60,259 nt of DNA from a virus (Duplodnaviria > Caudoviricetes). A program made the position numbers and the translations under genes. This document shows, piece after piece, positions 11,718 to 27,130 of this stretch (positions within the stretch are counted from its first letter, which is position 1; each line of letters begins with the position of its first letter). The notes under the pieces are model-generated. The model was not told the origin of the DNA, searched no databases, and saw nothing but the letters and a program-made list of their open reading frames with translations. The stretch lies in IMG/VR virus record IMGVR_UViG_3300010316_001058, positions 1 through 60,259 of that record; one strand, 5' to 3'.

Positions 11718-11786
11718 AAAAGAGGTTGACACAGCCCTAGGGCTGTGCTATTGTAAGTTATAGGGCAACATAACAAGGGATACACT

Positions 11787-11951: not shown

Positions 11952-12015
11952 TTGACATTGCGCCGCTCCAGTGCTATAGTATTGGAGTAGGGCAACGCAC
12001 ACAAAGGAACCGCAT

Positions 12016-12210
12016 ATGGACAAGATTCGTGCTGAGAAATGGCAGAAACTGATCGACCTGCTGGACGAAGCAGATGGGCTCCAGCAAGAGCTGTTGGGCG
12101 ATGTAGACGAGTTTGCTTGTAAAGAGTTCCACGAAGCTATCACAGCTATCGCCGAAGACTTGGAAGGTTGGGCTGCTGAAGAAGAAAAAGAGGTTGACAC
12201 TACTGCGTAG
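12016..12210 (+). CDS. early acidic hypothetical protein
   Basis: Own promoter and SD. Confidence 0.75.
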   Translation: MDKIRAEKWQKLIDLLDEADGLQQELLGDVDEFACKEFHEAITAIAEDLEGWAAEEEKEVDTTA

Positions 12211-12254
12211 ACGTGCTATAACTTACAAGTAAACAGCAACAAGAGGGACACAAG

Positions 12255-12530
12255 ATGCTGACACTGGAAAACACTGTTCGTTCGTATAGCGGCAAGCTTG
12301 GCTGTATGTGTGGCTGCAATGGCACCTACAACGAAGGTAGCCGTGCTCGCAAGATGGCTATCACTGCACTGCTGAAGAACCCAGACGTGCAACTGCAAGC
12401 GTGGAACCGAGGACGCGGCGACGATGCGGGCTGCTTGTTCGTTGACACTGCTACTCGCACCCGTGTGCTGTACCTCAATGAAGAGGGTGTTGCTGTTGCT
12501 CGTGCTTTGGGCGTTGGAGAAGTAGAATAA
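12255..12530 (+). CDS. early hypothetical protein with GCMCGC motif
   Basis: YSGKLGCMCGCNGTY; own promoter and SD. Confidence 0.8.
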   Translation: MLTLENTVRSYSGKLGCMCGCNGTYNEGSRARKMAITALLKNPDVQLQAWNRGRGDDAGCLFVDTATRTRVLYLNEEGVAVARALGVGEVE

Positions 12531-12599
12531 ATGGTTGACACAGCCTTAGGGCTGTGTTATTGTATATGAGTAGGGCAACACGCATACAAGGAGCATGAT

Positions 12600-12824
12600 A
12601 TGCAAATCACAGTAAACATCGATGCCTATCTAAATAAGCAGCAGCTGGAGCGTATTGCAGGTGACTCAATTGCAGCCAAGCTGGATACCATTGTGCAGCA
12701 TTTGTCAAATGAGTTCGGTGTGTATGCCGATGCAGGGCAGTCTGCCAGCGGGCTATGGATTGAGTTGGATGAAGGCTCGCCTGTGGACTTTGTCAAAGGC
12801 TTAGACACTTACAAGTTCTTTTGA
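12600..12824 (+). CDS. early hypothetical protein
   Basis: Own promoter and SD. Confidence 0.75.
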   Translation: MQITVNIDAYLNKQQLERIAGDSIAAKLDTIVQHLSNEFGVYADAGQSASGLWIELDEGSPVDFVKGLDTYKFF

Positions 12825-12894
12825 AAAAGAGGTTGACACAGCCTTAGGGCTGTGTTATTGTAAGACATAGGGCAACACACAAGGGAACGACATA

Positions 12895-13323
12895 ATGGCA
12901 TATGTAAGCAAAGACACCAAAGCAGCGTTGGCACCAGCAATCAAAGCAGTGCTTAAGAAGTACGCTGTCAAAGGCACCATCGCAGTTCGCAATCACAGCA
13001 GCTTGGTAGTCAACCTGCGCAGTGGCGCATTGGACTTGATTGGTGATGCCAACGCTTGGAACCAGCAGTATGCAGAGCGCACAGGACAGCGAGCTCACCC
13101 TGTGACTGACTACTACCAAGTGAACCCGTACTATGCAGGCACAGAGCACAGCGTTGACCCGCGTGTAGGCGAGTTCTTCGAAGAGCTGATTGCTGCAATG
13201 AAAGGCAACCTGTGGTACAATAACAGTGACGCACAGATCGACTACTTCGACACAGCCTACTACCTGGACATCAATGTAGGCAAGTGGGACAAGCCCTACG
13301 TGTTGGAAAAAGAATACGCATAA
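12895..13323 (+). CDS. early hypothetical protein (paralog of 22160-22510)
   Basis: MAYVSKDTKAALAPAIKAVLKKY..SDAQIDYFD..DINVGKWDKPY. Confidence 0.85.
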   Translation: MAYVSKDTKAALAPAIKAVLKKYAVKGTIAVRNHSSLVVNLRSGALDLIGDANAWNQQYAERTGQRAHPVTDYYQVNPYYAGTEHSVDPRVGEFFEELIAAMKGNLWYNNSDAQIDYFDTAYYLDINVGKWDKPYVLEKEYA

Positions 13324-13391
13324 ACTGGTTGACACTGCTCTACTCCGGTGCTATAGTATTGGAGTAGGGCAACGCACAAGAGGAGCACACA

Positions 13392-13598
13392 ATGCGTTCA
13401 ATGAAAGTATACGGTATCAAAGACGGCGGTGCAGAGCAGTATGTGGACACAGTCTACTCAGCTGCTGAAGGCAAGCAGGTTCACGTGCTGATGAAGCTGC
13501 AAGGCCACTTCGACGAGATGGTTGTGCGTGATGCGCTGGGTGGCAAGCAGATGCACCGCGACTTGCGTGTTGATCAAAGTCTTATGCAGCCTGCATAA
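13392..13598 (+). CDS. early hypothetical protein
   Basis: Own promoter and AGGAG SD. Confidence 0.75.
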   Translation: MRSMKVYGIKDGGAEQYVDTVYSAAEGKQVHVLMKLQGHFDEMVVRDALGGKQMHRDLRVDQSLMQPA

Positions 13599-13670
13599 TA
13601 ATGGTTGACACTGCTCTACTCCAGTGCTATAGTATTGGAGTAGGGCAACATAACAAGAGGGAAACACGTT

Positions 13671-13829
13671 ATGGATTATATCTTTGAAATTATGCAGCTG
13701 GACAATGACAAGATTGCGCCGGCTATGCAGAAGTTGAACGAACTGCAAGCAGAGTTCCATTCTGCACCCTACGACCAGGCCCGTATTGATCGACTGGAAT
13801 ATGAACTGGAACGGATGATTAACGAATAA
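13671..13829 (+). CDS. early hypothetical protein (52 aa, not in ORF track)
   Basis: Own promoter; leader identical to that of 13901. Confidence 0.65.
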   Translation: MDYIFEIMQLDNDKIAPAMQKLNELQAEFHSAPYDQARIDRLEYELERMINE

Positions 13830-13900
13830 AGGTGTTGACAGCATCAGTGCTTGATGCTATAACTAACACATAGGGCAACATAACAAGAGGGAAACACGTT

Positions 13901-14329
13901 ATGGAAAACATTTACTGGCACAACAAAGGCAAGTACCAAGCAGACTACGCACGCCTTTGCGAAGCATTGATTCCTGGAATGGGCAACTGCGAAACTGTAG
14001 CAGGAGAGATGCTGCGCTGTGTATCACGCCTTGCACACGACCTTTACAACAACGGTATGGGCAACAACACGTCAGGCGCTGTGAACTTCCTCAAAGCCAA
14101 AGGCGCTATTGACAGCAACACTCACGCAACCATCTACGAATACACACGTGGCCTGCTGTATGACGGGCGCTACAAAGGCGACAGCTTGCAGGTTGCTGTA
14201 GAGCACGCCATTGACAGTGCAATGGAGCTCATCCTTGCACACCCTGTGCTGGCTACCCTGCCCAACACGGAAGACATGTTCGACTACGAGGATCCCGAGG
14301 AAGTGTACGAGGACGACTACTACGCATAA
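13901..14329 (+). CDS. early hypothetical protein (paralog of 10154-10576)
   Basis: YWHNKGKYQ..GEMLR..HDLYNNGMGN. Confidence 0.8.
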   Translation: MENIYWHNKGKYQADYARLCEALIPGMGNCETVAGEMLRCVSRLAHDLYNNGMGNNTSGAVNFLKAKGAIDSNTHATIYEYTRGLLYDGRYKGDSLQVAVEHAIDSAMELILAHPVLATLPNTEDMFDYEDPEEVYEDDYYA

Positions 14330-14420
14330 GAGATCCCTCAGAGCAGCGTGTTAAAAATGGTTGACACGCTGCTCAACTCGTGCTATAACTAACACATAGG
14401 GCAACAAAGAGGACACTGCT

Positions 14421-14702
14421 ATGTCGATGATGGACTACTACCTCTACTATGACGAAGATCAGGACTGTGCTGAAGAGGCAATGCCCGAGCACACGCCTGT
14501 TGAGCCTGTGCACCTGTTGGAACTGTATCAACGTGGTCTGCTCCAGCTGCGCGAAGTGTTCAGTCACCGGGGGTGGCATCACAAGCTCACGCTGATGCAG
14601 TGGACAGACACTGGCGACGAGTATAACGCTCAGATGTGGGACGGGCCCACGGGCGAAGAATATGGGTGTCACGATGTTGAAAAATACAATGAATGGGGTT
14701 GA
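14421..14702 (+). CDS. early hypothetical protein
   Basis: Own promoter and SD. Confidence 0.7.
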   Translation: MSMMDYYLYYDEDQDCAEEAMPEHTPVEPVHLLELYQRGLLQLREVFSHRGWHHKLTLMQWTDTGDEYNAQMWDGPTGEEYGCHDVEKYNEWG

Positions 14703-14758
14703 CACGCTGCTCAACTCCTGCTATAACTAACACATAGGGCAACAAAGAGGACTACACT

Positions 14759-15001
14759 ATGAGCCATATGACTGCACTGAAAGAAATGTTTCCGCGCACA
14801 GACAACACCCGTCACTCCGCGTTCTGCGAGCGTGTTCCAATGGACCTATTTGAAGCAATGGAATCCGAACTGCGCACAGAGATGCGAGCAAAGGGCTACC
14901 GTGCCATGTATCGCGGTCCGCGTGTGAGCAACGATACCCGCGGCATTCCTTCAATGACACGGCGCTGCGATGCGACTCACGTGTTGCTGTATCGCAAATA
15001 A
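14759..15001 (+). CDS. early hypothetical protein
   Basis: Own promoter and SD; YRGPR motif. Confidence 0.75.
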   Translation: MSHMTALKEMFPRTDNTRHSAFCERVPMDLFEAMESELRTEMRAKGYRAMYRGPRVSNDTRGIPSMTRRCDATHVLLYRK

Positions 15002-15075
15002 ATGGTTGACACAGCCTAAGGGTTGTGCTATATTAAACAAGTAGACAGAAACACAGTGTAGAGGGAATATACACA

Positions 15076-15501
15076 ATGGGAACTCGTTCAACAATCGCAA
15101 TTGAAAACGCAGACGGCACAGTCACTGGCATCTATTGTCACTGGGATGGCTACCTCAGCAACAACGGCCGTATCCTGCAAGAGAACTACACAGACGAAGC
15201 TAAGGTGCGTGAACTGATCGCACTAGGCGACCTTAGCAGCTTGGGCGAGACTGTTGGCACCAAGCACAGCTTCGACAATGCTCCTCGCAACGAGTGCAAC
15301 GCTTACGGGCGCGATCGCGGCGAGAAGGATGTGGGTCCTGCGAGCTATGACACCTACGCAAACTTCCTTGACGTGATGGGGCAGGAGTTCGACTACTTGT
15401 TTGTGCCCGGCAAGGGCTGGCAAGTGCGCTACTTTGGCGAGTGGGAAAATACCGAAAGCCCGCTTGCAGAAGCACTGGTTAAGGACGCAGAAGAAGCGTA
15501 A
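15076..15501 (+). CDS. conserved phage protein (MGTRS..YCHWDGY family)
   Basis: MGTRSTIA, IYCHWDGY, AYGRDRGE, EFDYLF. Confidence 0.85.
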   Translation: MGTRSTIAIENADGTVTGIYCHWDGYLSNNGRILQENYTDEAKVRELIALGDLSSLGETVGTKHSFDNAPRNECNAYGRDRGEKDVGPASYDTYANFLDVMGQEFDYLFVPGKGWQVRYFGEWENTESPLAEALVKDAEEA

Positions 15502-15577
15502 GGCCGCGCTGCTATATATACACAAGCAGGTTGACAGAACGATCTGCTTGTGTTATACTAAACGCACAACAAAGGTA

Positions 15578-16123
15578 ATGGAGGGTAGTACCATACCAAA
15601 TTGGAATTCGAATGTAATCATCATTGATGGACCTGCGGATAAGATCCGTGCGCTGTGGGACGCTGCACAACCTGCAGAAGGCAACGACGGCTCACTGCTG
15701 GAAGCAATGGCGCCCATCGGCGAGTGGGACTACGATACTGCTGTTACTGCTTGGGGCACCAAGTGGGATGTGTCGATGGAAGGGCTTCAGCTCATTGAAG
15801 GCGGCGACGGCACTGCGAGCATTCAGGGCTATGCTGACTCAGCTTGGGGCCCGCCCATTGAAGCGTTCCAGACCTATGCTGCGGCCAACGACGATGTGTT
15901 CCTGTCGCTGAAATACTTTGAACCCGGTATGAGCTTTATCGGACAGTGGGATTCAGAAGCAGGTGACGACTACTGGGAAGACGTGGGCAGCTTGCTGGAG
16001 ACTACTGCTGAGTCTGATCCGTTCCTTTACGAGCTTATGGAAGAGTTCGACGTGTGGGGTTGGTTTGACGACGAGGAAGAGGAAGACGAGACTGCTGAAG
16101 AGATCGAACTTAGCGAAGAATAA
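15578..16123 (+). CDS. DUF1281/YubB ferredoxin-like domain protein
   Basis: PNW.SN, WGTKWD, SAWGPP, YFEPG motifs; true start uncertain (ATG 15578 or ATA 15593). Confidence 0.75.
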   Translation: MEGSTIPNWNSNVIIIDGPADKIRALWDAAQPAEGNDGSLLEAMAPIGEWDYDTAVTAWGTKWDVSMEGLQLIEGGDGTASIQGYADSAWGPPIEAFQTYAAANDDVFLSLKYFEPGMSFIGQWDSEAGDDYWEDVGSLLETTAESDPFLYELMEEFDVWGWFDDEEEEDETAEEIELSEE

Positions 16124-16182
16124 TGGTTGACACTAGGCCCTCCTTATGCTATTTTGTATAAGTAACGCAAGGAGGGCATCAA

Positions 16183-16332
16183 ATGCGCATCACAATCAAA
16201 GCTGAAGACATCACTGTTCGCAACCGTGCTTATGGCGAGGCACGTTCGCAAGGGCGTCTTGCTACTCGCAGCATCTGCGACAAGACCAAATATCGCCGCA
16301 AAGAAAAACACAAAAAGAAGTTGACAGACTAG
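16183..16332 (+). CDS. small basic protein (49 aa, not in ORF track)
   Basis: AAGGAGG SD; ends DKTKYRRKEKHKK. Confidence 0.65.
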   Translation: MRITIKAEDITVRNRAYGEARSQGRLATRSICDKTKYRRKEKHKKKLTD

Positions 16333-16378
16333 GCCCTAGGTGCTATAACTAACACATAAGCAACGAGAGGGACACAAG

Positions 16379-16594
16379 ATGCTTTACGTAGATGTTAAGA
16401 CTGTAACTGCAACTGAAGACGGTTTGTTTACTGTGGTACTTGCGTGTGACGGCGTAGAGGTGCAGTGCGAAGGCGTAGCGTGGTTTGACGCAGCATACGA
16501 CGAAGACGAGCTGATAGCAGTGTTTGAAGAATGGCAAGACTTGGCGCTTGAGCCCGAAGAAGGCTATACTTTTGTAGGCGAAACAGTATTGTAA
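16379..16594 (+). CDS. early acidic hypothetical protein
   Basis: Own promoter and SD. Confidence 0.75.
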   Translation: MLYVDVKTVTATEDGLFTVVLACDGVEVQCEGVAWFDAAYDEDELIAVFEEWQDLALEPEEGYTFVGETVL

Positions 16595-16734
16595 AAAAAT
16601 AGCAGTGCAGGCAAAATAACGCTTGCACTGCTCGTCATATGCTATAACTAACACATAGGGCAACACACAGAAGGAACTACACAATGGCACCGAAAGGTGC
16701 TATTGTTATTGTATAGGCAAACAAGGAGACGACG

Positions 16735-16890
16735 ATGACTAATGAGTATGTTGCGGAGCGGGTCAAGCGGTTGCTAGCGAACGAGATTGAAGACAACGAG
16801 ACTGAGATGGAGATGCTGACTGTGCTGCCCGATGGCTCACTTAAGGTGTATGGCTTCACTGGCGAAGCTGTTATAATTAATTTCAAATAA
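16735..16890 (+). CDS. early hypothetical protein (51 aa, not in ORF track)
   Basis: AAGGAG SD after fused promoter scar. Confidence 0.65.
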   Translation: MTNEYVAERVKRLLANEIEDNETEMEMLTVLPDGSLKVYGFTGEAVIINFK

Positions 16891-16959
16891 GGGGTTGACA
16901 TTGGCACCAAAGGGTGCTATATTAAGTTATAGGGCAAACAAACAAAGAGGGACTACACA

Positions 16960-17175
16960 ATGGCTAACATGAGCTACTGCCGCTTCCAAAACACTGTACA
17001 AGATCTTCAGGATTGCTTCTACGCAATCGAAGAAGCTATTGAGCAGGGCGAGAGCATGGATCTTAGTGATGATGAGAAGCGCGCCTTCAATCGCATGTTC
17101 AACTTGATGGAGGACATGATGCCGATGATGGAAGCAGTCACTGAGCTCGAAGATGAGTTGGAGGCTGCTGAATGA
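16960..17175 (+). CDS. conserved phage protein (NMSYCRFQNT family)
   Basis: MANMSYCRFQNT..DL.DC..LSDDE. Confidence 0.85.
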   Translation: MANMSYCRFQNTVQDLQDCFYAIEEAIEQGESMDLSDDEKRAFNRMFNLMEDMMPMMEAVTELEDELEAAE

Positions 17176-17363
17176 GCTGGGACCGCACAGGGGAGAGTGT
17201 CACTGGCGCATACCTTGAACAGTTCGACTTCACAGGCGTCGTTGAGTCGTCGCGTGTGACCTATGGTGGAGCAATTCAGCACACCATCTTACTTGGTAAT
17301 GAAATTATTGTATTCGATGTGGCGCGTGAACGCCTGTTGGTACTTGAAGGAGACTTGAAATGA
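17172..17363 (+). CDS. early hypothetical protein
   Basis: ATGA overlap, GGAGG SD. Confidence 0.75.
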   Translation: MSWDRTGESVTGAYLEQFDFTGVVESSRVTYGGAIQHTILLGNEIIVFDVARERLLVLEGDLK

Positions 17364-17552
17364 TTACTGCACTTATCGGTATGTTCGCTATCCCCTTGAT
17401 GCCCGTTGCTATCGGAATGGTGTATGCTTAACATCCGCGGCGCCGAGCACCGTGCGATCTACGACAGCATTCCTTAAACAAAATGGTTGACAATGGCACC
17501 GAAAGGTGCTATTGTTATTGTATAGGGCAAACAAGCTAAAGGAGTTTAGCAC

Positions 17553-17840
17553 ATGGGACGCAAGACAATTGAAGTTGGCAAGCTGTTGAAGATTGCAAAT
17601 AACTTCCTCGCAGCAGAAGCAACAACCGCCGAAGAGCGCGAAGGCGTCTGTTCTATCATCGAAGCGGCGCTGTTCGAAAGCGGCAACTATGAAGGCTTCC
17701 GCTACCTCGAGCAAGAGCATCACGCAGACGGCACGTTGAAGACATTGGGCTGCGGCTCACGACGCTATTACTTCACTAACAAGGTCACGCAAGAAGCCTT
17801 TGCCGCCGAAGACCGTAACATCAACAAGATTCGCGTGTAA
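17553..17840 (+). CDS. early hypothetical protein
   Basis: Own promoter and SD; GNYEGFRYL. Confidence 0.8.
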   Translation: MGRKTIEVGKLLKIANNFLAAEATTAEEREGVCSIIEAALFESGNYEGFRYLEQEHHADGTLKTLGCGSRRYYFTNKVTQEAFAAEDRNINKIRV

Positions 17841-17902
17841 GAGGTTGACAGCAGCCGCAGAGATGCTATTATAAACAAGTAGACAACAAAGAGGGTACTT
17901 AT

Positions 17903-18103
17903 ATGTCGACTATCGAACAACGAGCTGACTGGGCAATGGCCGCAGCGGACAACATCGATCGCAACCTTGCTGACGCAGTGGACGGCGACCTCGACAACAT
18001 CCAAGAACATATGTACACCTTAGCGCACGACGGCGCAGTGGATGCCGGCGCTACAATGGAAGACGCAACAGAAATCGCAATCATGCTAGCAGGAGAACAA
18101 TAA
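17903..18103 (+). CDS. early hypothetical protein
   Basis: Own promoter and SD. Confidence 0.75.
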   Translation: MSTIEQRADWAMAAADNIDRNLADAVDGDLDNIQEHMYTLAHDGAVDAGATMEDATEIAIMLAGEQ

Positions 18104-18291
18104 TGTTTACAGTTTACTTTGCCCGTGGGTACTTCAACGAAGAGATCGTGGCTACATGCCGCACAGAAGAAGCAGCAGTTGCCCGAGCAGACGAAGAGTT
18201 TGCTAACGGTAGCCGCGACATTGAGGTCTACGATAGCGCAGGTGTGTGCATCTACGTAGCCGACGAAGAAGTGTTGTTCGACGAATATTAA
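18103..18291 (+). CDS. early hypothetical protein
   Basis: TAATG overlap, AGGAG SD. Confidence 0.7.
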   Translation: MFTVYFARGYFNEEIVATCRTEEAAVARADEEFANGSRDIEVYDSAGVCIYVADEEVLFDEY

Positions 18292-18359
18292 TGGTTGACA
18301 GCCACTAGTGATCGTGCTATATTAAGTTATAGGCAAACAAACAAAGAGGGTACTACACA

Positions 18360-18644
18360 ATGTCAAATGTACGCACAGCAATCCAAGCAATCCGCGGTAT
18401 GAGCAACGACGAGATCAATGAGATCATGGAAGCGATCCGGCTCCAGCGTAACTTTAACTCAAAGGACGCTGTGCGTTCGTTTATGGTCGGCGACACTGTC
18501 AAATTCAACGCTGGTCCACGCCGCGGTATGCGCTACGGCACTGTTACCAAAGTCAACATCAAAAACATCAAGGTGCGCACCACAGACGGTGCCAACTGGA
18601 ATGTTGCTGCTACGCTGCTGGAACAGGATACTTCCAAAGCGTAA
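18360..18644 (+). CDS. early protein with SH3/KOW-like C-terminal barrel
   Basis: FMVGDTVKF..GTVTKVNIKNIKV..WNVAATLL. Confidence 0.75.
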   Translation: MSNVRTAIQAIRGMSNDEINEIMEAIRLQRNFNSKDAVRSFMVGDTVKFNAGPRRGMRYGTVTKVNIKNIKVRTTDGANWNVAATLLEQDTSKA

Positions 18645-18705
18645 CACATCACCAGCAGGGCTTAGGCCCTGCTTCACCGCCGATATCATAACTAGGAGAG
18701 AACAG

Positions 18706-18876
18706 ATGTCAAAGAGTATTGTTAATCAGATTACCTCAATGAGCGAACGGCGGATCGAACAACTGGCAGCATCACTTTACGCTGCTGACCCAGCACAGGC
18801 AATGGCACTGGCCAAAGCGATTGGGTTCGAAGATATGGAAGCCATGCTAGACAGCCGGGAGGGTGTTGCGGTATAA
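18706..18876 (+). CDS. hypothetical protein (56 aa)
   Basis: AGGAG SD before ATG 18706. Confidence 0.6.
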   Translation: MSKSIVNQITSMSERRIEQLAASLYAADPAQAMALAKAIGFEDMEAMLDSREGVAV

Positions 18877-18879
18877 ATA
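18872..18879 (+). promoter_or_regulatory. T4-type late promoter upstream of tRNA cluster
   Basis: TATAAATA 6 nt before first tRNA. Confidence 0.7.
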
Positions 18880-18885
18880 GACTAC

Positions 18886-18962
18886 GCTCCAGTAGCACAA
18901 TTGGTTAGTGCATTCCGCTCATAACGGAACGGTTGTAGGTTCAAGTCCTACCTGGAGCACCA
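18886..18962 (+). tRNA. tRNA anticodon CAT (elongator Met or Ile2)
   Basis: GCTCCAG/CTGGAGC acceptor, TTCCG-CTCATAA-CGGAA anticodon arm, GGTTCAAGTCC, encoded CCA. Confidence 0.92.
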
Positions 18963-18965
18963 TAC

Positions 18966-19049
18966 GCCCCCTTGGTGGAATGGTAGACGCGGGAGACTTA
19001 AAATCTCCTTCCTTAGGGAGTGCCAGTTCGAGTCTGGCAGGGGGCACCA
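18966..19049 (+). tRNA. tRNA-Leu(TAA)
   Basis: GCCCCCT/AGGGGGC acceptor, GGAGA-CTTAAAA-TCTCC, long variable arm, CCA. Confidence 0.93.
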
Positions 19050-19057
19050 TAGTTAAC

Positions 19058-19114
19058 GGATCCTTAGCTCAGCTGGGGAAGAATATATTTGATGGACCCT
19101 TAGCTCAGCTGGTG
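19058..19114 (+). pseudogene. two truncated tRNA 5' stubs
   Basis: GGATCCTTAGCTCAGCTGG (19058) and GGACCCTTAGCTCAGCTGGT (19094), no anticodon or T arms follow. Confidence 0.65.
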
Positions 19115-19142
19115 AGCTATTGAAGCGTAGAATACATATGCT

Positions 19143-19219
19143 GTCTCCGTGGCACAACTGGACAGCGCAAGGCACTTCTAATGCCTAGGTTGGGGGTTCG
19201 AGTCCCTCCGGGGACACCA
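19143..19219 (+). tRNA. tRNA-Arg(TCT)
   Basis: GTCTCCG/CGGGGAC acceptor, AGGCA-CTTCTAA-TGCCT, GGTTCGAGTCC, CCA. Confidence 0.93.
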
Positions 19220-19326
19220 TATGTATTCTTCGATCAAAAAGTACTCTTCCTGCTAACTTTTCGGTTGACATCGGTATCAATCAGTGCTATAACTAATGTA
19301 TAGGCAAACAAACAAAGGGTAGCAAG

Positions 19327-19515
19327 ATGACAGCAACAGAAAAAGCAATGGCAGCAGAATTGGAGATCAGTAAGTGCCTCGAGGCACTTACTGATCTCCA
19401 GCTGCTTACCGCTATGGAAGCACTCGACAGTGACCCAGCGCCGCAGCATGTTAAAGATCTTATCATGCGCAAAATCAACAGCATTATGAATGTGCGTATT
19501 GGATTGGAGGCGTAA
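19327..19515 (+). CDS. early hypothetical protein containing a perfect 40-bp palindrome
   Basis: Own promoter and SD. Confidence 0.7.
   Translation: MTATEKAMAAELEISKCLEALTDLQLLTAMEALDSDPAPQHVKDLIMRKINSIMNVRIGLEA
19361..19400. repeat. perfect 40-bp palindrome
   Basis: TGGAGATCAGTAAGTGCCTC|GAGGCACTTACTGATCTCCA. Confidence 0.95.
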
Positions 19516-19516
19516 G

Positions 19517-19780
19517 ATGGCAACGTGTCCAGAGTGCTTTGAACGCAAACCGTTTTGGGCTCGTCGTTGCCATAGTTGCAACGAAGAGATTGGATTCTTG
19601 CGTCAGCTATATACTCAGTGGGTGATCCTTACAGTGACCTTTGGGTCTATGTGGGTGTTCTATGCTGCGTTCGCAGGCGGCGTTTGGCATGCATTGTTCT
19701 GGAGCCTAGTTTGGGTGCTTGGTCCACTCATCATTGCGTTTCCGTTCATATTCATCTATTTTCTAAAGTTTGCAAAATAA
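19517..19780 (+). CDS. zinc-ribbon membrane protein
   Basis: CPEC..CHSC then two hydrophobic helices; GGAGG SD. Confidence 0.75.
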   Translation: MATCPECFERKPFWARRCHSCNEEIGFLRQLYTQWVILTVTFGSMWVFYAAFAGGVWHALFWSLVWVLGPLIIAFPFIFIYFLKFAK

Positions 19781-19839
19781 ACGGTTGACACTAGCGCGTT
19801 AGGTGCTATACTAAACAAGTAAGCAAAGAAGGGCAACGT

Positions 19840-20835
19840 ATGACACAGATTAAAATCAACAACGGTAGCTATAAGATCCGCGGCGCTGAGACTAGCATGT
19901 CCGGCAATGTGTTTGAGCTTGTAGAAGAATTCAAAGTTGGTAAGATTGGCGGCTACGTAACCGTAGATGGTCGTAGCGTTGCCGGCTTGCCCGATCGCAA
20001 CATCAAGATCCGCTGCGATGGTCCAGAAGACTACACGGTGGTCACAGGCCCCGCTAATGTACAGGCGATTGACGAAACAGACGAGCAGATCATTGAGCGG
20101 CTTCGCAACCGTTTCGACATGCTTTCGGAGATGACCAAAGCAGTCAAGAAGGGCGCTGTTGGCGCTATGATCGTAAGCGGACCTCCAGGCGTTGGCAAGT
20201 CACATGGTGTTGAGGAAGTGCTTGATCGGTATCAGATGGTTGAGACGCTGGGTGGCAGTCAGAAGCACGAGGTAGTCAAAGGCGCAATGAGCGCGATTGG
20301 CTTGTACTGCAAGCTCTACAAGTTCTCCGACAAGGACAACGTGTTGGTGTTCGACGACTGTGACAGCATCTTTAACGACGAGCTGTCGCTTAACATTATG
20401 AAGGCGGCACTTGACTCAAAGAAGAAGCGTGTGATTCACTGGAACACAGATAGCTACAAGCTACGCAACGAAGGTGTGCCAGATCAGTTCGAGTTCAAAG
20501 GCTCGGCGATCTTTATCACTAACTTGAAGTTCGACAAAGTCAAAGGCAAGCTGCGCGAGCACCTTAAGGCACTTGAGTCACGCTGCCACTACATTGACTT
20601 GACAATTGATACAGACCGCGAGAAGATGCTGCGCATCAACCAAATCGTACAGGACGGCATGTTGGACAGCTACGGCTTCGACGACGAGACACTTGAAGAG
20701 ATCATTGACTTCGTTGACATCAACAAAGATCAACTGCGTGAATTGAGCCTGCGTACTGTACTGAAGATCGCAGACTTAGTAAAGAGCTTTCCAGATCGCT
20801 GGGGCGACTTTGCACAGAATACCGTTATGCGGTAA
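19840..20835 (+). CDS. AAA+ ATPase
   Basis: Walker A GPPGVGKS, Walker B VLVFDDCD, sensor FITN, ESRC. Confidence 0.9.
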   Translation: MTQIKINNGSYKIRGAETSMSGNVFELVEEFKVGKIGGYVTVDGRSVAGLPDRNIKIRCDGPEDYTVVTGPANVQAIDETDEQIIERLRNRFDMLSEMTKAVKKGAVGAMIVSGPPGVGKSHGVEEVLDRYQMVETLGGSQKHEVVKGAMSAIGLYCKLYKFSDKDNVLVFDDCDSIFNDELSLNIMKAALDSKKKRVIHWNTDSYKLRNEGVPDQFEFKGSAIFITNLKFDKVKGKLREHLKALESRCHYIDLTIDTDREKMLRINQIVQDGMLDSYGFDDETLEEIIDFVDINKDQLRELSLRTVLKIADLVKSFPDRWGDFAQNTVMR

Positions 20836-20841
20836 CGAGAT

Positions 20842-21024
20842 GGTGTTGCGTTTGGCAGGTTGAGCTATGCTCCCGCAAACGCAACACTTAAAGCAGGGTT
20901 AACCTGCGACAGTGCTGGACACTTGTTTGCCCTCGGTCCAGCGCACTACAGAGCAAGAGTGCTGCCCTCGCACTATGCTCTAACTGCTCGGGATGCGGTT
21001 GCCCTGCTGCTCCCGAGCATTTTT
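20842..21024 (+). ncRNA. five-hairpin non-coding RNA with three (T)TGCCCT loops, ending in a terminator
   Basis: Hairpins 20842-20888, 20893-20907, 20911-20947, 20950-20981, 20985-21019 then TTTTT; G-U pairs favour plus strand. Confidence 0.7.
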
Positions 21025-21083
21025 CTCTTGACAAGACGTCCAAACGGTGTTACTATGAAAGTAAGAAACAAAGGAGAGTCCGA

Positions 21084-21434
21084 ATGAATAAGCTCATCGC
21101 AGTCGCACTGGCTGGCATTGTGTTCGTAACCCCGGCGCAGGCTGGCAATGAAGATGTCATCGTCGGAGCCATTGTTGGCGCGATCCTTGGCAAGGTGCTC
21201 AGTGATAGTCACGGGCATCAGCCACAGTACTATCCACAGCACAGCCCACAAGTTCAGCTACCACAGCACAACCCACGCAACTCACCACGCTTGCCGGGCT
21301 ACTCACGTGGTGTAAACAACCCTAGCGCAGTGTGCTCGAGCACAGCACAGCACAGTGGGAACTGGGTTATCGTGCGTCAATATAACTGCTATGGCGAACT
21401 GCTCGGTGTTCAAAAGAGTGTGCGTCACTACTAA
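21084..21434 (+). CDS. secreted glycine-zipper protein
   Basis: Signal peptide, GAIVGAILG. Confidence 0.75.
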   Translation: MNKLIAVALAGIVFVTPAQAGNEDVIVGAIVGAILGKVLSDSHGHQPQYYPQHSPQVQLPQHNPRNSPRLPGYSRGVNNPSAVCSSTAQHSGNWVIVRQYNCYGELLGVQKSVRHY

Positions 21435-21506
21435 TTAGTGGTTGACATTGGCACCGTTCAGTGCTATAGTATATGTATAGGGCAACACGCTAAAGGAGAT
21501 TAGCAC

Positions 21507-21701
21507 ATGACTCAGTGGAAAGATATTTCAACGTTCGACTACGGTGCGTATCGCTATGTGGACGTGCTAGTGCGTGGCAAGGATGGTGTGGCTGTGGCTG
21601 CTTGGGACCCCGCGGAATTTGCATTCATCTCCGACCTCCGCGGCAAAGGTATGGGGGAAACCGTATACGGCCCAGTTGCTTGGATGGAAATTCCAGAGTA
21701 A
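21507..21701 (+). CDS. DUF551-like small protein
   Basis: QWKDI..VLV..WMEIPE pattern. Confidence 0.65.
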   Translation: MTQWKDISTFDYGAYRYVDVLVRGKDGVAVAAWDPAEFAFISDLRGKGMGETVYGPVAWMEIPE

Positions 21702-21711
21702 GGATAATGAG

Positions 21712-21864
21712 ATGACTAGAATTTTTATAGTGATGATGATCGTGACTCTTGTAGTGGGACTTGCGTCAGTGTCCTTTGTGGTCAGCAAGTGTGGCGCCAA
21801 GGGGCTGCTCTACGGCAATGGCGCGGTGATCGTTGCTGCTTCAGGAGTGTGCGACGACAAATAA
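21712..21864 (+). CDS. small membrane protein
   Basis: AAGGA SD, hydrophobic N-terminus. Confidence 0.5.
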   Translation: MTRIFIVMMIVTLVVGLASVSFVVSKCGAKGLLYGNGAVIVAASGVCDDK

Positions 21865-22159
21865 ATGGTTGACATTGACACCATTAGGTGCTATAGTATA
21901 TGTATAGGGCAACAAGGAGATAATGAAAATGACCAACTGCTGCGCAAAGAATAAAGTCTGGGTTAATAAGTTCGCTGACCTTGAGGTTCAGGACGTCGAT
22001 AGCAAGGGTGCTCTAACCAAAGATTATGTTGCCTTTGATGTAAATGTTTTTATTTGCAAGGTTTGCAATAAAATTCATTTAAGCGCGGATTAGGCTTGTA
22101 ATCTGCACCATTAGGTGCTATAGTATATGTATAGGGCAACAACACAAGAGGGCAACAAG

Positions 22160-22510
22160 ATGGCATATGTAAGCAAAGAAGACAAAGCGAAGTTGGCACC
22201 AGCGATCAAAGCTGTGCTTGCCAAGTACAACATGAAGGGCACGATCGCCGTGCGTCATCACAGCACATTGGTTGTCACTGTGCGTCAAGGCGCTATCGAC
22301 TTCGGTGGCACCGACATCGACGTTAACGTTTATTGGATTCACGAGCACTACAAGGGCAAGGCTAAGAAGTTCCTTACAGAGCTGCTGGCGGCTATGAAGG
22401 GGCCGGACTTCTTTGATCACTCAGACTCAATGACTGATTACTTCCACCGCAGCCACTACACAGACATCAACATCGGCGCATGGAACAGGCCATACGCGCT
22501 GGCCAAGTAA
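22160..22510 (+). CDS. early hypothetical protein (paralog of 12895-13323)
   Basis: MAYVSKEDKAKLAPAIKAVLAKY..SDSMTDYF..DINIGAWNRPY. Confidence 0.85.
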   Translation: MAYVSKEDKAKLAPAIKAVLAKYNMKGTIAVRHHSTLVVTVRQGAIDFGGTDIDVNVYWIHEHYKGKAKKFLTELLAAMKGPDFFDHSDSMTDYFHRSHYTDINIGAWNRPYALAK

Positions 22511-22533
22511 CACACAAACAAAGGACGAACATC

Positions 22534-22878
22534 ATGGGAATTTATTACAGAGGCATCAGCAAGCGCACTCGCACTGTCAAAGGCGTTACGTTTGCGTTCA
22601 CTAACTTCCACGGCAAAGCGCCAGTGAACCGAGTCGAACCCAACCGAGCGTGGAACACCTTTGTTACCAAGAGCTCAAAGACCGCAGACGAGATGGCGCT
22701 CAAGGTCAACTATGTAGTCATGGCCAACACCATCACCGAGATGGCCGAATATGGCGAGACTGTGATCGCTGCGTGGAATGGACAGTCGACTATGGACGAT
22801 CACTTTTGGGACACCAAGGCTGTTGGCAAGGTGATCAAGCGTGGCAAGCGGTGGCAGGTTGAGTTCAGCCCTGCCTAA
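22534..22878 (+). CDS. early hypothetical protein
   Basis: AAGGA SD. Confidence 0.7.
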   Translation: MGIYYRGISKRTRTVKGVTFAFTNFHGKAPVNRVEPNRAWNTFVTKSSKTADEMALKVNYVVMANTITEMAEYGETVIAAWNGQSTMDDHFWDTKAVGKVIKRGKRWQVEFSPA

Positions 22879-22952
22879 ACAAAATGGTTGACATCGGAAC
22901 CGTTTGATGCTATATTATATGTATAGGGCAAACAACCAAAGAGAGACGCACA

Positions 22953-23690
22953 ATGATTAAGTTTACAAGCATCGTAGCCGCTGCAATGATTACCGCAGGA
23001 GCGGCATCAGCATGTGAATACAAAGCACACAACATCAACATTGACTTCAACGGCACCGCGCCAATTGCAGGTGCGTGTGAAGGCGCAGTGACAGCGATCA
23101 AGTTCTTTGAAGATGTAGGCTACGACGAGCAAGTGTTCACTGTAAACATCACAGTCACTGACGCTGTCTACACTTACATGACAAACGAGAACACAGGCGA
23201 AGAGATTCCGCTTCGTGCGTTTGGCCTGTATGACGGCGAATCAAATCAAATCACAATAAGCGCCTTGGGCACTGACTACATGAACTCACGCACTGCATGG
23301 AACACTGATGCGCGTGATGACACCAGCGGCATGCCAATCACTGAAGAGATTTGGGCAAGCGTTATTACACACGAGACAGCTCATGCACTTAGCACACAGG
23401 TCTTCAACAGGCTGAACCCTGTGATGGTGAGCAACGGCTATTTTATGCCACATGGCCCAAGCGAGTATATTTCTTACATGATTCAACTCGCTACTACACG
23501 CGATGAACTGCGTGATGAGATCATTGCCAGCTTTGACAACCCTACAGCGTTTGCACACAGAGACAACTTGAATCCGTATGTCCACTTTGCTCACCCACAC
23601 AAGTATGGCGTCCGCGCGTACCTTACACAGAACATGGATTGGTTCCATAATGCACTGAGCGGCAAGTTTGGTCAACTGCCGGATTGGTAA
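22953..23690 (+). CDS. secreted zincin-like metallopeptidase
   Basis: Signal peptide; HETAH (HExxH) with downstream SEY. Confidence 0.65.
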   Translation: MIKFTSIVAAAMITAGAASACEYKAHNINIDFNGTAPIAGACEGAVTAIKFFEDVGYDEQVFTVNITVTDAVYTYMTNENTGEEIPLRAFGLYDGESNQITISALGTDYMNSRTAWNTDARDDTSGMPITEEIWASVITHETAHALSTQVFNRLNPVMVSNGYFMPHGPSEYISYMIQLATTRDELRDEIIASFDNPTAFAHRDNLNPYVHFAHPHKYGVRAYLTQNMDWFHNALSGKFGQLPDW

Positions 23691-23764
23691 ATTAGAGGTT
23701 GACAATGGCACCACTAGGTGCTATTGTTATTGTATAGGCAAACAACAAAAGACGAGGGCAGTCA

Positions 23765-24319
23765 ATGAAGTTTATCAAAGTTATCGCGCACACAGTCAAT
23801 GTCGCGGCATTAGCCGGCATGATTGGAGTATACGCAGCAAACAATGTCGCAGCAGACACAGCACAAGACACGATGTCAGTTGCTGATATTGTAGGCGCCG
23901 CCGAACTACTGTGTCTACAGCAAAACATCTACTTCGAAGCAGGCAACCAAAGCCTGCTGGGCAAGGTATCCGTTGCGTGGGTCACACTCAATCGAGTAGA
24001 GGACGATCGTTATCCAGGAACGATCTGCGGCGTAGTCAAGCAAGGACTCAAGGATGACAAGGGCAACATGATCCGACACAAGTGTCAGTTCAGCTGGTAC
24101 TGCGATGGCAAGGCTGATACTGTTTCTGACAACGTTATCGAGCAGCGCGCCTGGCAAGACAGTCAGATAGTTGCCGAGGTTGTGCTGCTAGACTGGGCTC
24201 GTGCTATGCAGTCACCAGTTGGCGAAGCTGTTATGTATCACGCAGACTATGTCGAGCCATACTGGGCTTCAAGCTACGATCGCGTGGTACAGATCGACAC
24301 TCACATTTTTTACGAATAA
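23765..24319 (+). CDS. SleB/CwlJ-like cell wall hydrolase (Hydrolase_2)
   Basis: CL.QNIYFEA, V.LNRV...YPGTICGVV.Q, CQFSWYCDG, YHADYV.P.W, HIFY. Confidence 0.92.
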   Translation: MKFIKVIAHTVNVAALAGMIGVYAANNVAADTAQDTMSVADIVGAAELLCLQQNIYFEAGNQSLLGKVSVAWVTLNRVEDDRYPGTICGVVKQGLKDDKGNMIRHKCQFSWYCDGKADTVSDNVIEQRAWQDSQIVAEVVLLDWARAMQSPVGEAVMYHADYVEPYWASSYDRVVQIDTHIFYE

Positions 24320-24381
24320 GGGGTTGACAACGGTGTCAATCAATGCTATAACTAGTGTATAGGCAAACAAGGAGACACGCG

Positions 24382-24783
24382 ATGACACATACTTTTGAAG
24401 CAAACATTTTTTCCGACTTGTTCAAAGATGCGCGTGGCTACCGTCCAGACAGCGGACACGAGTTCTACATGCTGGACACCACCGACGATCGCAAGCAAGA
24501 GATCTGGGACAGCATGATCGAAGAGTTCAACGAAGCACAAGAAGCAGAGCAGAAGCGCGAAGCTGCGGCACTTGCTGCGTTTGAAGCTCGTGTTGCTGCG
24601 ACACGCGCACTTGGTGCCAGCACTGACGTCGAAGCGATCAAATGGATCCTTGACGCAGAAGGCATGGACGAGTACGATTACATGTACGGCGCTGATGCTG
24701 CGGCTTTCCACTTCGGACTTGCTTACAGCAATCCATTCAAAGAACTATTCACTCAAGCAATGACTAAGGAGACGACACAATGA
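24382..24783 (+). CDS. early hypothetical protein
   Basis: SDLFKDARGYRP motif; own promoter and SD. Confidence 0.8.
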   Translation: MTHTFEANIFSDLFKDARGYRPDSGHEFYMLDTTDDRKQEIWDSMIEEFNEAQEAEQKREAAALAAFEARVAATRALGASTDVEAIKWILDAEGMDEYDYMYGADAAAFHFGLAYSNPFKELFTQAMTKETTQ

Positions 24784-24995
24784 GCTTTATTCCATTTATC
24801 CTCCAAGGTGCGTTCTTTGGATACGTACTCGGCAACTTTTTGTCAATGGAGACTGACCTACTAGCGTTCATAGGCCTGTGCCTCATCAACGCCGCGCTGG
24901 TGATTGTCTACGGCGACCACCGCCGCAACGAATAAATGGTTGACATCGACACCAAACGGTGTTATCGTAAGTTATAGGCAAACAAGGAGAAGACT

Positions 24996-25475
24996 ATGGG
25001 ACTTGATATGTATCTGACTGCTGAGCGTTACCTTTGGGGATCCGGCGACAACACTGACAAAGACGTCAAAGCTGCTATCCAAAAGATGATGCCAGAGACT
25101 GCGGGCATGGAAGTCAAGACCGTGAGCATCGAAGCCATGTACTGGCGCAAGGCCAACGCTATCCACAAGTGGTTCGTTGACACACTACAGGAAGGAGTCG
25201 ACGAGTGTCAGACTACTCGACTCGAATGGGATAGCCTTGTTCAGCTTCGCGCACTGTGTCAGAGTGTACTTGCTGATCATTCTATTGCTCCAGACGTGCT
25301 GCCAGCAGGCGGCGGGTTCTTCTTTGGCAACACTGAGTACGACGAGTGGTACTTCGACACCCTAGAGCGTACCGTTGAAGGCATTGACCGCATTGAGAAT
25401 CAGTTGGTGGCTGAAACGGACCGATCCGGTGTGCCGTACAGCCAGTGGGAATTCAAATACCAAAGTTCCTGGTAA
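24996..25475 (+). CDS. conserved phage protein (MGLDMYL family)
   Basis: MGLDMYL, YWRKANAIH.WF, GFFFG..YDEWY, YQSSW. Confidence 0.88.
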   Translation: MGLDMYLTAERYLWGSGDNTDKDVKAAIQKMMPETAGMEVKTVSIEAMYWRKANAIHKWFVDTLQEGVDECQTTRLEWDSLVQLRALCQSVLADHSIAPDVLPAGGGFFFGNTEYDEWYFDTLERTVEGIDRIENQLVAETDRSGVPYSQWEFKYQSSW

Positions 25476-25780
25476 TAAGAGGTTGACAATGGCACCATTG
25501 GGTGCTAGTATAAGTGTATAGGGCAAACAAACAAGGAACATGATATGATAGTCTATGCTGTGATGTGCGAGAGCTACAACGGTGAGCGCGATGTGACTGA
25601 GGTCTATACCTTGTATGCTAACAAGAACGATGCCGAAGCCTTTGTAGCCACTGCGATGGCTGGCAAGCGCAGTTCATATTCGCCTACATATTATGTTGAC
25701 CCAATGGAAGTTATTGGTTGACAAAGGCACCATTTGGTGCTAGTATAAGTGTACAGGGCAACACGCTAAGGAGTTAGCAC

Positions 25781-26182
25781 ATGACAAAGACATTTACCCG
25801 CGTAGGCATCAGCACTAACAAAGGCAAGACTCAGTTCCGCTACACCAACGACCTCAACCGTGAGACGGTGCTCAGCAAGAACGGTCACACTGACATCGTG
25901 TTCTACGAGCTCGGCGAAGCGTTGACCAAAGAGCAGGCAAGCGAAGTTATGAGCAACATCCTTGCTCAAGCTGCTAGCGGCGCATTGGAAGCAACACCCG
26001 ACGATGGCTTTGTTGAACCCAAGGACGAAGCTGTCCAGGTAGCAATGTGCCAAGCTGCTCGCGACAATCCAACACTGGACGCGCAAGCTTTGTTCATGCT
26101 AGTGACTGCTCCGGAAGTCGAAGAGGAGTGGACCCCTGAGAATGCCGACTACTGCGATGTTGGATCGCGTCATCATTATTAA
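25781..26182 (+). CDS. early hypothetical protein
   Basis: Own promoter and AAGGAG SD. Confidence 0.8.
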   Translation: MTKTFTRVGISTNKGKTQFRYTNDLNRETVLSKNGHTDIVFYELGEALTKEQASEVMSNILAQAASGALEATPDDGFVEPKDEAVQVAMCQAARDNPTLDAQALFMLVTAPEVEEEWTPENADYCDVGSRHHY

Positions 26183-26252
26183 ATAATAATGGTTGACAAT
26201 GGCACCATTAGGTGCTATAGTATATGTATAGGGCAAACAAGAGGACTTGAAC

Positions 26253-26477
26253 ATGTCAACATCATTGCGCGACGTAACTCCAACACTCCTGCAGACACGC
26301 TTCTTTGGCGGACAGAACCGCGGCCCATGTGTACAAGTTACACAGACGCAGATGAAGAGCTGTGCTGCAAGCAACCCACAAGGTGTGCAGTTCCTGCAAC
26401 TCACACGCAACGAAGCAGCACTGTTGGCAGCAGAGTTGTTGCGCTTTGCTACAGGCAACGAAGTGGAGGAAGTATAA
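26253..26477 (+). CDS. early hypothetical protein
   Basis: TRFFGG..RG.CVQVT. Confidence 0.75.
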   Translation: MSTSLRDVTPTLLQTRFFGGQNRGPCVQVTQTQMKSCAASNPQGVQFLQLTRNEAALLAAELLRFATGNEVEEV

Positions 26478-26758
26478 TGAACACTGCACAGATCATCCTA
26501 AGCCAAATCAAAACACTGGACCCGATGGCCACGTTCGCTTGGGGCGCGAAAGATATGATCCGCATCACTGACGGCTTGAAGTTCAAGACTTCGGGCATGG
26601 TCAAGTGGAAAGGCTACGTAGAGGTCACACTCAACGGCAGCGACCTCTACGACATCGACTTCTACAAGATCCGCGGTGCCAAGCTTACCTACACCGAACA
26701 GGTAACTGATGTGTTCGTCGAAGACTTGGTCAGCACCATAGACAGCGTGGTAGGATAA
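26477..26758 (+). CDS. early hypothetical protein
   Basis: TAATG overlap, GGAGG SD; AQIIL.QI..WGAK..DLYDI. Confidence 0.8.
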   Translation: MNTAQIILSQIKTLDPMATFAWGAKDMIRITDGLKFKTSGMVKWKGYVEVTLNGSDLYDIDFYKIRGAKLTYTEQVTDVFVEDLVSTIDSVVG

Positions 26759-26832
26759 CATGTCATCATAAAAGGTTGACAATGGCACCGTTTGGTGCTA
26801 TAGTATATGTATAGGGCAACAAGGAGAGCAAG

Positions 26833-27072
26833 ATGTTCAGCGAGACTTATACTGTAAAGCAACTTCGGAATGCGTTGTTGGCGTTGAGCAACCGCAAGAC
26901 CAAGAGTGTCAAAAAGCGTATGGCATATGCTCGACTCAACAACATGCTGGATTGGCTAGGTTGGGAAGACCAAAAAGAAGTTACACTGAAGGATCTATAC
27001 GCCATTCCCAGCGTAGGCAAGAAGACTGTAGATACTGTCCTATGTGACTGGCGGCATGTATTAAGAGGTTGA
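26833..27072 (+). CDS. small protein with HhH-like motif
   Basis: DLYAIPSVGKKTV. Confidence 0.7.
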   Translation: MFSETYTVKQLRNALLALSNRKTKSVKKRMAYARLNNMLDWLGWEDQKEVTLKDLYAIPSVGKKTVDTVLCDWRHVLRG

Positions 27073-27130
27073 CAATGGTATCATTCGATGCTATAACTAG
27101 TGTATAGGCAAACAAACAAAGGACTTGAAT

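Follow-up and report, generated by a model that had tools for sequence, protein, structure and literature searches.

The stretch analysed here, a 60,259-nucleotide (nt) piece of DNA from an uncultured giant phage, IMG/VR record IMGVR_UViG_3300010316_001058 (hereafter the window), carries directly downstream of an AAA ATPase gene a 183-nt element (20842-21024, plus strand) which probably encodes a structured non-coding RNA that would pair with a short sequence tag on early messages, thereby shutting off early translation. The assumption that the loops of this RNA work by pairing with the tag is held with good confidence, and translational repression or shut-off as the net effect is put more tentatively, at slightly below an even chance. 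Structure and conservation of the element, placement of its loops, their complementarity to the tag and the co-occurrence and co-variation of the tag across clades were directly observed and serve as the starting points.

Folding with RNAfold yields five hairpins followed by TTTTT, right after the TAA stop codon of the ATPase gene (20833-20835), as an earlier note made from the letters of this DNA had described. The respective features are as follows.

19840-20835, plus strand: AAA ATPase of 331 amino acids, T4 NrdC.10-like (PF00004, 23.7 bits; phrog_1250, E 1e-80, function unknown).
20842-20888, plus strand: hairpin 1 (RNAfold), long stem, loop without GCCCU.
20893-20907, plus strand: hairpin 2 (RNAfold), stem of 5 base pairs, motif-free loop GTTAA.
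20912-20944, plus strand: hairpin 3 (RNAfold), stem of 9 base pairs, 15-nt loop region (20921-20935) holding CTTGTTTGCCCT (20922-20933).
20950-20981, plus strand: hairpin 4 (RNAfold), loop TGCCCTC (20963-20969).
20985-21024, plus strand: hairpin 5 (RNAfold), apical loop (21000-21005) in GGTTGCCCTGCT, stem 20985-21019, T5 at 21020-21024.

The core GCCCU is exposed in the loops of hairpins 3, 4 and 5 (TTGCCCT of hairpin 5 locates to 20999-21005) and is complementary to the heptamer AGGGCAA, whereby the loop positions reported before (20922-20933, 20963-20969 and 20999-21005) were reproduced. Hairpin 4 is the positional counterpart of the "...GCCCTCACGCTCTGC" hairpin that is conserved within the family described below. 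Over 20836-21030 the plus strand folds with a minimum free energy (MFE) of -93.9 kcal/mol (z = -6.84, equalled by 0 of 200 shuffles) and the minus strand with -88.7 kcal/mol (z = -5.06), folding of both strands having been a check proposed by the earlier note. Together with T5, hairpin 5 (stem 20985-21019) is predicted to form an intrinsic-terminator-like 3' end, and T-runs at this position recur in relatives.

The complement of these loops is overrepresented in the window: AGGGCAA was found 36 times as compared to 6.80 +/- 3.08 expected matches (maximum 16 in 100 shuffles), with 31 matches on the plus and five on the minus strand, two of the latter being loops of the 183-nt stretch itself. 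The matches mostly locate about 8 nt past the -10 box of repeated early promoters. For these leaders, 24 copies of AGGGCAA and nine of AGGCAA had been counted in the earlier note; a regular expression requiring a promoter of the TTGACA-N15-19-TAnnnT type and the motif 4-11 nt after the -10 box returned 23 and eight, to which two variants were added by inspection, and the earlier count was thus matched.

9474-27115, plus strand: early region with the predicted targets, 31 promoter cassettes (regular expression) followed by AGGGCAA (23) or AGGCAA (8) 4-11 nt past the -10 box.
16657 and 16715, plus strand: two further variant cassettes, identified by inspection.
16172-16177, 22148-22153 and 23754-23759, plus strand: GAGGGC at ribosome-binding positions.
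19830-19836, plus strand: AGGGCAA in the ribosome-binding region of the ATPase gene, 3 nt 5' of its ATG.

The loop sequence CTTGTTTGCCCT of hairpin 3 matches, as its exact reverse complement, AGGGCAAACAAG at 10131, 17524 and 26230; the claim of a perfect 12-nt complement to three leaders was thus correct apart from one position, given as 17525, and a match over 10 nt is seen with seven leaders. Likewise recovered were GAGGGCA in the ribosome-site regions at 16172, 22148 and 23754 and the tag in the ATPase's own Shine-Dalgarno region, where AGGGCAAC at 19830 ends 3 nt short of the start codon. Otherwise, ribosome sites in the window mostly read AAGGAG or AGAGGGA, the tag being shifted to the predicted transcript 5' end.

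When pairing of the 33 leaders was scored with our own accessibility-corrected duplex model, a mean of -12.9 kcal/mol was obtained as compared to -5.75 kcal/mol for shuffled leaders, and -8 kcal/mol or better was reached by 33/33 leaders versus 25/132 shuffled ones. Of the formerly proposed targeting by three loops, the complementarity of the loops to the tag stands, but the best pairing site for 33/33 leaders is a single one, namely the large loop of hairpin 3. The loops thus present the accessible seed known from trans-acting base-pairing small RNAs (sRNAs). As for specificity, the window loops pair with their own targets over 8.8 nt on average versus 6.3 nt for the loops of other genomes, and none of 22 other genomes' loops fits the window targets as well as the window's own. 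The canonical anti-Shine-Dalgarno sequence is CCUCC, with which only the GAGG of (G)AGGGC(A) can pair; the extra GC(A) of the tag is unaccounted for by pairing with 16S rRNA and is complementary to the loops. Duplex energies were obtained as listed.

GAGGGC with GCCCUC: -10.4 kcal/mol.
Class-A 7-mer: -12.0 kcal/mol.
Class-B 9-mer: -13.4 kcal/mol.
Window 12-mer: -18.7 kcal/mol.
GAGG with the anti-Shine-Dalgarno sequence: -3.7 kcal/mol.
AAGGAG with the anti-Shine-Dalgarno sequence: -6.2 kcal/mol.

Classes A and B refer to relatives of the locus, which were gathered from viral contigs using the ATPase and a 15-nt piece of the conserved hairpin as queries. This yielded 101 distinct ATPase-bearing loci, 22 of which were assigned to class A, 32 to class B and 35 to a group in which no RNA was seen with at least 1100 nt downstream of the ATPase inspected; the remaining 12 were set aside for too little flank. 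Class A, whose ATPases are about 65-75% identical and to which the degenerate locus L135 may be added, carries 2-5 hairpins after the ATPase stop codon, which itself often lies inside the first hairpin, usually followed by a T-run (at least five T on the plus strand in 15/18 members). The stems vary and the loops carry GCCCUC, usually as N1-3-GCCCUC-(A) in a loop of 7-9 nt. MFE z-scores of 18 members range from -2.2 to -6.9 (median -4.8), and of the 64 GCCCT motifs 49 fall into hairpin loops of at most 14 nt in the MFE folds, as compared to a mean of 7% when the flanks were shuffled around fixed motifs. Counted by stem and loop, GCCCTC is enclosed by a stem of at least 4 base pairs closing a loop of at most 10 nt in 42/67 cases, versus 26/160 elsewhere in the same loci, with 22 different closing arms; this count supersedes a more liberal hairpin test (at least 4 pairs), which did not discriminate between the region (42/65) and the loci overall (134/310). 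Among 18 hairpins with 8-nt loops, double changes occur at 5/6 stem pairs, and 83% of positions are paired versus 23-43% in slide controls; as these hairpins were preselected for at least 4 pairs, the pair types and not the percentage paired are the informative measure. The loop-closing pair is U-G in 9/17 hairpins, which would become A-C on the opposite strand and therefore fits only the plus strand.

The array is also specific to its locus, since in five records of 83-358 kb the pattern GCCCTC-N10-40-GCCCTC occurs only at the ATPase locus and only on the ATPase strand, a reversed-pattern control giving 0 matches in the same records. Because hairpin number and length vary, the consensus structures obtained from MAFFT alignment combined with RNAalifold were poor for the complete region and for its 3' module alike, and per-sequence folds and loop-anchored counts were therefore used; a single-hairpin covariance model (R1) was too weak as well, hairpin 4 of the window scoring 11 bits (E 1.2) as second among 16 matches of similar level.

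A protein-coding function of 20842-21024 was considered and rejected. In the window, the frame continuing past the ATPase stop is open across the RNA region (20860-21087, an open reading frame (ORF) of 75 amino acids with a TTG start), yet it is open in just 4/22 class-A members; in 10/22 class-A regions each of the six frames is interrupted by stops, and open frames elsewhere are inconsistent. The earlier statement that the stretch holds no credible ORF is thus borne out across class A, no frame being consistently open in the 22 relatives. Nor was a known RNA family identified by the Infernal/Rfam search proposed alongside: at gathering threshold Rfam 15 reports only three transfer RNAs (tRNAs) in the window, for 20700-21150 with E up to 10 it reports a single match of 13.7 bits against a gathering score of 81.3, and in the loci of 10 relatives it reports only tRNAs.

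In class-A genomes the counterpart of the loops, (G)AGGGC, is a ribosome-binding element present on many early genes, with the site taking the form ...AGAGGGCAA-ATG. On the gene strand of 19 loci, 117/211 AGGGC copies sit 1-9 nt 5' of a start codon (of ORFs of at least 40 amino acids), GAGGGC precedes 87 of 354 crude gene calls (24.7-fold over background), and the bases following AGG are G (53%) and C (46%) at ribosome-site positions as compared to 14% and 21% at other AGG. The tag is also part of the ribosome site of the ATPase gene, both in the window and in relatives. In a complete relative of 357.6 kb, 15/22 forward matches to AGGGC-N3-9-ATG fall within 11.4 kb around the RNA locus, and the tag therefore marks the early cluster. 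An AGGGCAA about 8 nt past the -10 box, in addition or instead, was encountered in a few class-A genomes, namely the window, L004/L063, L006/L059, L007 and L091. The former claim that AGGGCAA marks predicted transcript 5' ends accordingly applies to the window and few relatives but not to the family, in which the core is GCCCUC with GAGGGC at the ribosome site.

The main argument for base pairing comes from class B, i.e. from sister clades in which both partners differ. The 32 class-B loci carry 1-2 hairpins plus a terminator with the nearly invariant sequence CCGAUUCGCUCCCGG, and the class-B loop AUUCGCUCC is complementary to the class-B ribosome-site consensus AAGGAGCGAA; among the ribosome sites of 138 genes AGGAGC occurs 35, GGAGCG 29, GAGCGA 23 and AGCGAA 16 times. 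The distribution of both tags over the classes is as follows.

Class A (22 loci): AGGGC at 106/499 ribosome sites, GGAGCG or GAGCGA at 2/499.
Class B (32 loci): AGGGC at 15/504 ribosome sites, GGAGCG or GAGCGA at 101/504.
No RNA seen (35 loci): AGGGC at 19/524 ribosome sites (8 of them from L135), GGAGCG or GAGCGA at 3/524.

As in class A, the tag clusters next to the RNA, with all 14 forward matches to GGAGCG-N3-10-ATG in one class-B record falling into 9.4 of 106.8 kb adjoining the element. A quick ATPase tree places the RNA-bearing groups, which are nested, in one clade of 77 rows (support 99). Neither the RNA nor either of the two tags is seen in a 10-row subclade on a long branch within the clade that contains class A (nine rows without RNA, one with too little flank), nor in 24 outgroup rows. 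That two loops each fit the tag of their own clade, and are absent together with it elsewhere, is what chiefly speaks for pairing. Seed and target thus changed jointly between clades, and the expectation that the loop co-varies with the leader motif of each phage holds between classes A and B but not for the flanks within class A. A distant blastn search with the class-B RNA against phages gave only chance matches of 19-24 nt.

The class-B element locates directly 3' of the ATPase in 10 loci and about 590-930 nt downstream of it, past small ORFs, in 22 loci; in L203 and L197 it is relocated upstream. In one class-B group (L138, 5061-5838) three small ORFs lie between ATPase and RNA, encoding a Cys-rich product of 79 amino acids, a hydrophobic one of 67 and one of 90 (phrog_4973, function unknown); the RNA follows the 90-amino-acid gene even in L203, where this gene is upstream of the ATPase. 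Variant loops were also encountered: L176 (about 4800-4850) carries the loop GUCGCUCCCG with GGAGC at 8/29 ribosome sites and GGAGCG or GAGCGA at 1/29, L008 (about 4000-4160) has loops rich in CCCUC/CUCCC, and in L135 a GCCCUC loop is accompanied by a GCCCUU loop. These may be transitional loops that show how the code changes. In the window, GCTCCCG, the core of the class-B loop motif, is found at 20869-20875 within the stem of hairpin 1 in the MFE fold, and it may be either a relic of the class-B code or a coincidence.

As to how the element would act, we infer that it is transcribed, pairs in vivo and brings about repression. The RNA would be the 3' untranslated region (UTR) of the NrdC.10-like ATPase transcript, running from the promoter at 19785 to the hairpin-T5 end at 21024, and it might either be released from that transcript by processing or stay part of it. 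Between the promoter at 19785 and position 21028 the plus strand shows no other promoter-like site.

19785-19812, plus strand: sigma-70-type promoter of the ATPase gene and probably also of the RNA (TTGACA-16-TATACT, TG before the -10 box, 11/12 consensus).
21028-21056, plus strand: next early promoter, right after the T-run (10/12 consensus).

The C-rich loops (core GCCCU/GCCCUC) are then suggested to base-pair with the G-rich (G)AGGGC(AA) of early mRNAs, the target being the ribosome-binding element itself in most relatives and, in the window, the predicted 5' ends of about 31-33 early transcripts plus the ribosome sites of a few genes including the ATPase. With accumulation, the multivalent RNA would sequester the early leaders and out-compete the 30S subunit, as its duplexes range from -10 to -19 kcal/mol as compared to -4 to -6 kcal/mol for the portion of these sites able to pair with the anti-Shine-Dalgarno sequence. 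The outcome would be a class-specific shut-off of early translation and hence an RNA counterpart of T4 RegA/RegB. The essential proposal of the earlier note, a plus-strand multivalent antisense RNA of the 3'UTR type, gains support from the conservation of the array, the co-occurrence of the tag and the joint change of loop and tag in class B.

Several findings weigh against this proposal. With a single RNA gene against about 30-40 strong promoters, stoichiometric shut-off would require high stability of the RNA. The early transcription starts in the window are predictions, and the tag lies there 15-30 nt 5' of the Shine-Dalgarno sequence, which makes simple occlusion of the ribosome site less obvious than in relatives. 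Within class A, the flanks of the loops fit their own genome better than other genomes in only 9/19 cases (Wilcoxon p = 0.57), and pairing beyond the core of 6-7 nt is therefore not a family-wide property. The contrast between clades depends on few independent events (one gain, one switch and one or two losses) and uses crude gene calls. Hairpin 5 was missed by a simple scan for consensus terminators, as its stem is bulged. Finally, 0.09 and 0.06 of the sampled words were recovered from two metatranscriptome runs, whose contigs cover 19834-20201, 20509-20643 and a bit at 21439-21480 and do not extend over 20842-21024, which is uninformative on expression since the runs consist of assembled contigs. 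One RNA-library contig identical to the window starts at 19834 in the ATPase leader; a contig end does not equal a transcript start.

The same pairing might also have the opposite effect, such that the RNA shields early mRNAs from decay that depends on the 5' end, or from cleavage by a RegB-like nuclease, and thereby prolongs or boosts their expression. In the window the tag occupies the predicted positions +1 to +9 of the transcripts, off the Shine-Dalgarno sequence, and the RNA is predicted to be co-expressed with its targets from an early-type promoter; moreover, RoxS is reported to activate yflS by pairing with the mRNA 5' end, which blocks RNase J1 (PMC5419742). In most relatives, however, the tag is the ribosome-binding element, and a duplex of -10 to -13 kcal/mol should block the 30S subunit there. 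While none of the computed data separates repression from stabilisation, the latter is judged rather unlikely.

A further-reaching version of the pairing idea regards the RNA as a phage-encoded surrogate anti-Shine-Dalgarno, i.e. as a trans-acting reader of a private initiation code which would have been rewritten at least once together with dozens of ribosome sites (UUCGCUCC/GGAGCGAA to GCCCUC/GAGGGC). In its boldest form the RNA would be an adaptor channelling tagged mRNAs to or away from ribosomes and would give the phage an orthogonal control of translation that does not depend on 16S rRNA; this version is considered improbable.

Dispensing with pairing altogether, the element may be imagined as a scaffold or sponge for a protein, for instance the adjacent ATPase, after the manner of CsrB/RsmZ, with complementarity to the tag being incidental. 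Two to five hairpins with one loop motif, unrelated stems and variable copy number are indeed the known architecture of sponges, and there is tight linkage of the RNA with the ATPase gene, whose stop codon is often part of the first hairpin. Yet the loops of two clades each exactly complement the ribosome-site extension of their own clade (over 6-7 nt and 8-9 nt), for which chance is a very unlikely explanation, some class-B elements adjoin a different gene instead of directly following the ATPase, the loops lack GGA, and a search for the CsrA family (PF02599) gave no match in five phage records, its positive control being found in 3/14 genomes. A sponge appears a poor candidate.

Still less probable is a passive 3'UTR whose hairpins guard the ATPase mRNA from 3' exonucleases or pair in cis with the ATPase ribosome site only: the location between stop codon and T-run and the tagged ATPase ribosome site in window and relatives would suit it, but a stabiliser needs stems and not loops, whereas it is the loops that are conserved while the stems vary, and it fails to explain why the complement is found on dozens of other early genes only in RNA-bearing genomes. 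That the minus strand provides a decoy with AGGGCAA/GAGGGC loops for a tag-binding factor, which the earlier note had raised as a CsrB-like variant, or that the element acts at the DNA level as an origin or protein-binding array, is hardly credible, for although the minus strand also folds well, the plus strand folds better, is the one followed by T-runs, carries the U-G closing pairs and is always the ATPase strand, a site in duplex DNA needs no flanking stem at each copy, and a CsrA-family gene was not found in the five records.

Compared with known systems, an RNA pairing with the early tag would in principle resemble RsaE and RoxS. The C-rich motif of these Firmicutes sRNAs is UCCC. According to PMC6158497 and PMC8216469, C-rich loop motifs pair with the G-rich Shine-Dalgarno regions of many mRNAs, and the phage element resembles them in exposing several C-rich loop motifs complementary to ribosome-binding regions and, as described for RoxS (PMC5419742), in its possible action at mRNA 5' ends. 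It differs in being phage-encoded, in having no relationship to them by sequence or Rfam match, and thus no recognisable homology, in a motif that fits a private ribosome-site extension of one temporal class which is missing in RNA-free relatives, and in a loop code that differs between sister clades. T4 provides the second comparison, as its RegB cuts GGAG in early ribosome sites and its RegA competes with the ribosome on about 30 mRNAs (PMC3014915). Global post-transcriptional control of early messages via their translation-initiation regions would be common to both, with the difference that RegA and RegB are proteins and the specificity element here would be an RNA; the RegA family (PF01818) gave no match in five records (that of the window and four relatives, one of them complete with 357.6 kb) in a search run without positive control. 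CsrB/RsmZ share the varying hairpin count, the repetition of a single loop motif and a subsequent terminator, but the GCCCUC loops are the complement and not a mimic of the ribosome site and hold no GGA/ANGGA, the partner would be an RNA and not a protein, and a cognate CsrA was not detected in the five phage records. CpxQ and SroC are 3'UTR-derived sRNAs of enterobacteria. They likewise occupy the stretch from a stop codon to the terminator of the parent mRNA and have the 3' end of the parent gene in common with it; the phage RNA, whose 3'UTR origin is predicted, would differ in being multivalent, phage-encoded and aimed at a regulon-wide tag. The element belongs to none of the RsaE/RoxS, RegA/RegB and CsrB families and is a putative base-pairing regulatory RNA with an unusual regulon-wide tag that is rewritten between clades.

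A search of PMC and bioRxiv full text returned no paper that describes a ribosome site of the GAGGGC type or a phage RNA with complementarity to the ribosome sites of early genes. To our knowledge, the timing of early-gene shut-off in large lytic phages is known in detail only for T4, where it involves the proteins RegA and RegB. The comparison presented here points to an RNA solution, in which one small locus would read a tag on most early ribosome sites or leaders, and it would account for the puzzling non-canonical Shine-Dalgarno extension of these genomes. As tag and reader differ between sister clades, nature appears to have carried out a compensatory-mutation experiment, and loop and ribosome-site extension would constitute a ready-made orthogonal pair which can be tested with reporters in E. 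coli despite the lack of cultured phages of this kind. If the proposal holds true, a regulon-wide multivalent base-pairing RNA would join the few known sRNAs of virulent phages.

With respect to the surroundings of the element, the source phage is T4-related by its NrdC.10-like ATPase. The ATPase of one relative matches nrdC.10 of Acj9. By tblastn the ATPase is at most 46% identical to phages of the PA5oct group and to T4-like phages, so that among cultured phages there is no annotated close relative for comparison, and megablast of 19800-21500 against cultured phages gave zero matches. Directly 3' of the RNA, an ORF of 116 amino acids (21084-21434) is served by a promoter of its own and begins with a hydrophobic N-terminus resembling a signal peptide, with zero Pfam/PHROG matches. 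Just 5' of the ATPase operon the window holds three tRNA genes (Met-CAT, Leu-TAA and Arg-TCT, 18886-19219). Among 10 loci of relatives scanned for tRNAs, seven gave hits and all of these hold tRNA genes (L002, L005, L040, L046, L138, L146 and L151), for which reason the neighbourhood looks conserved.

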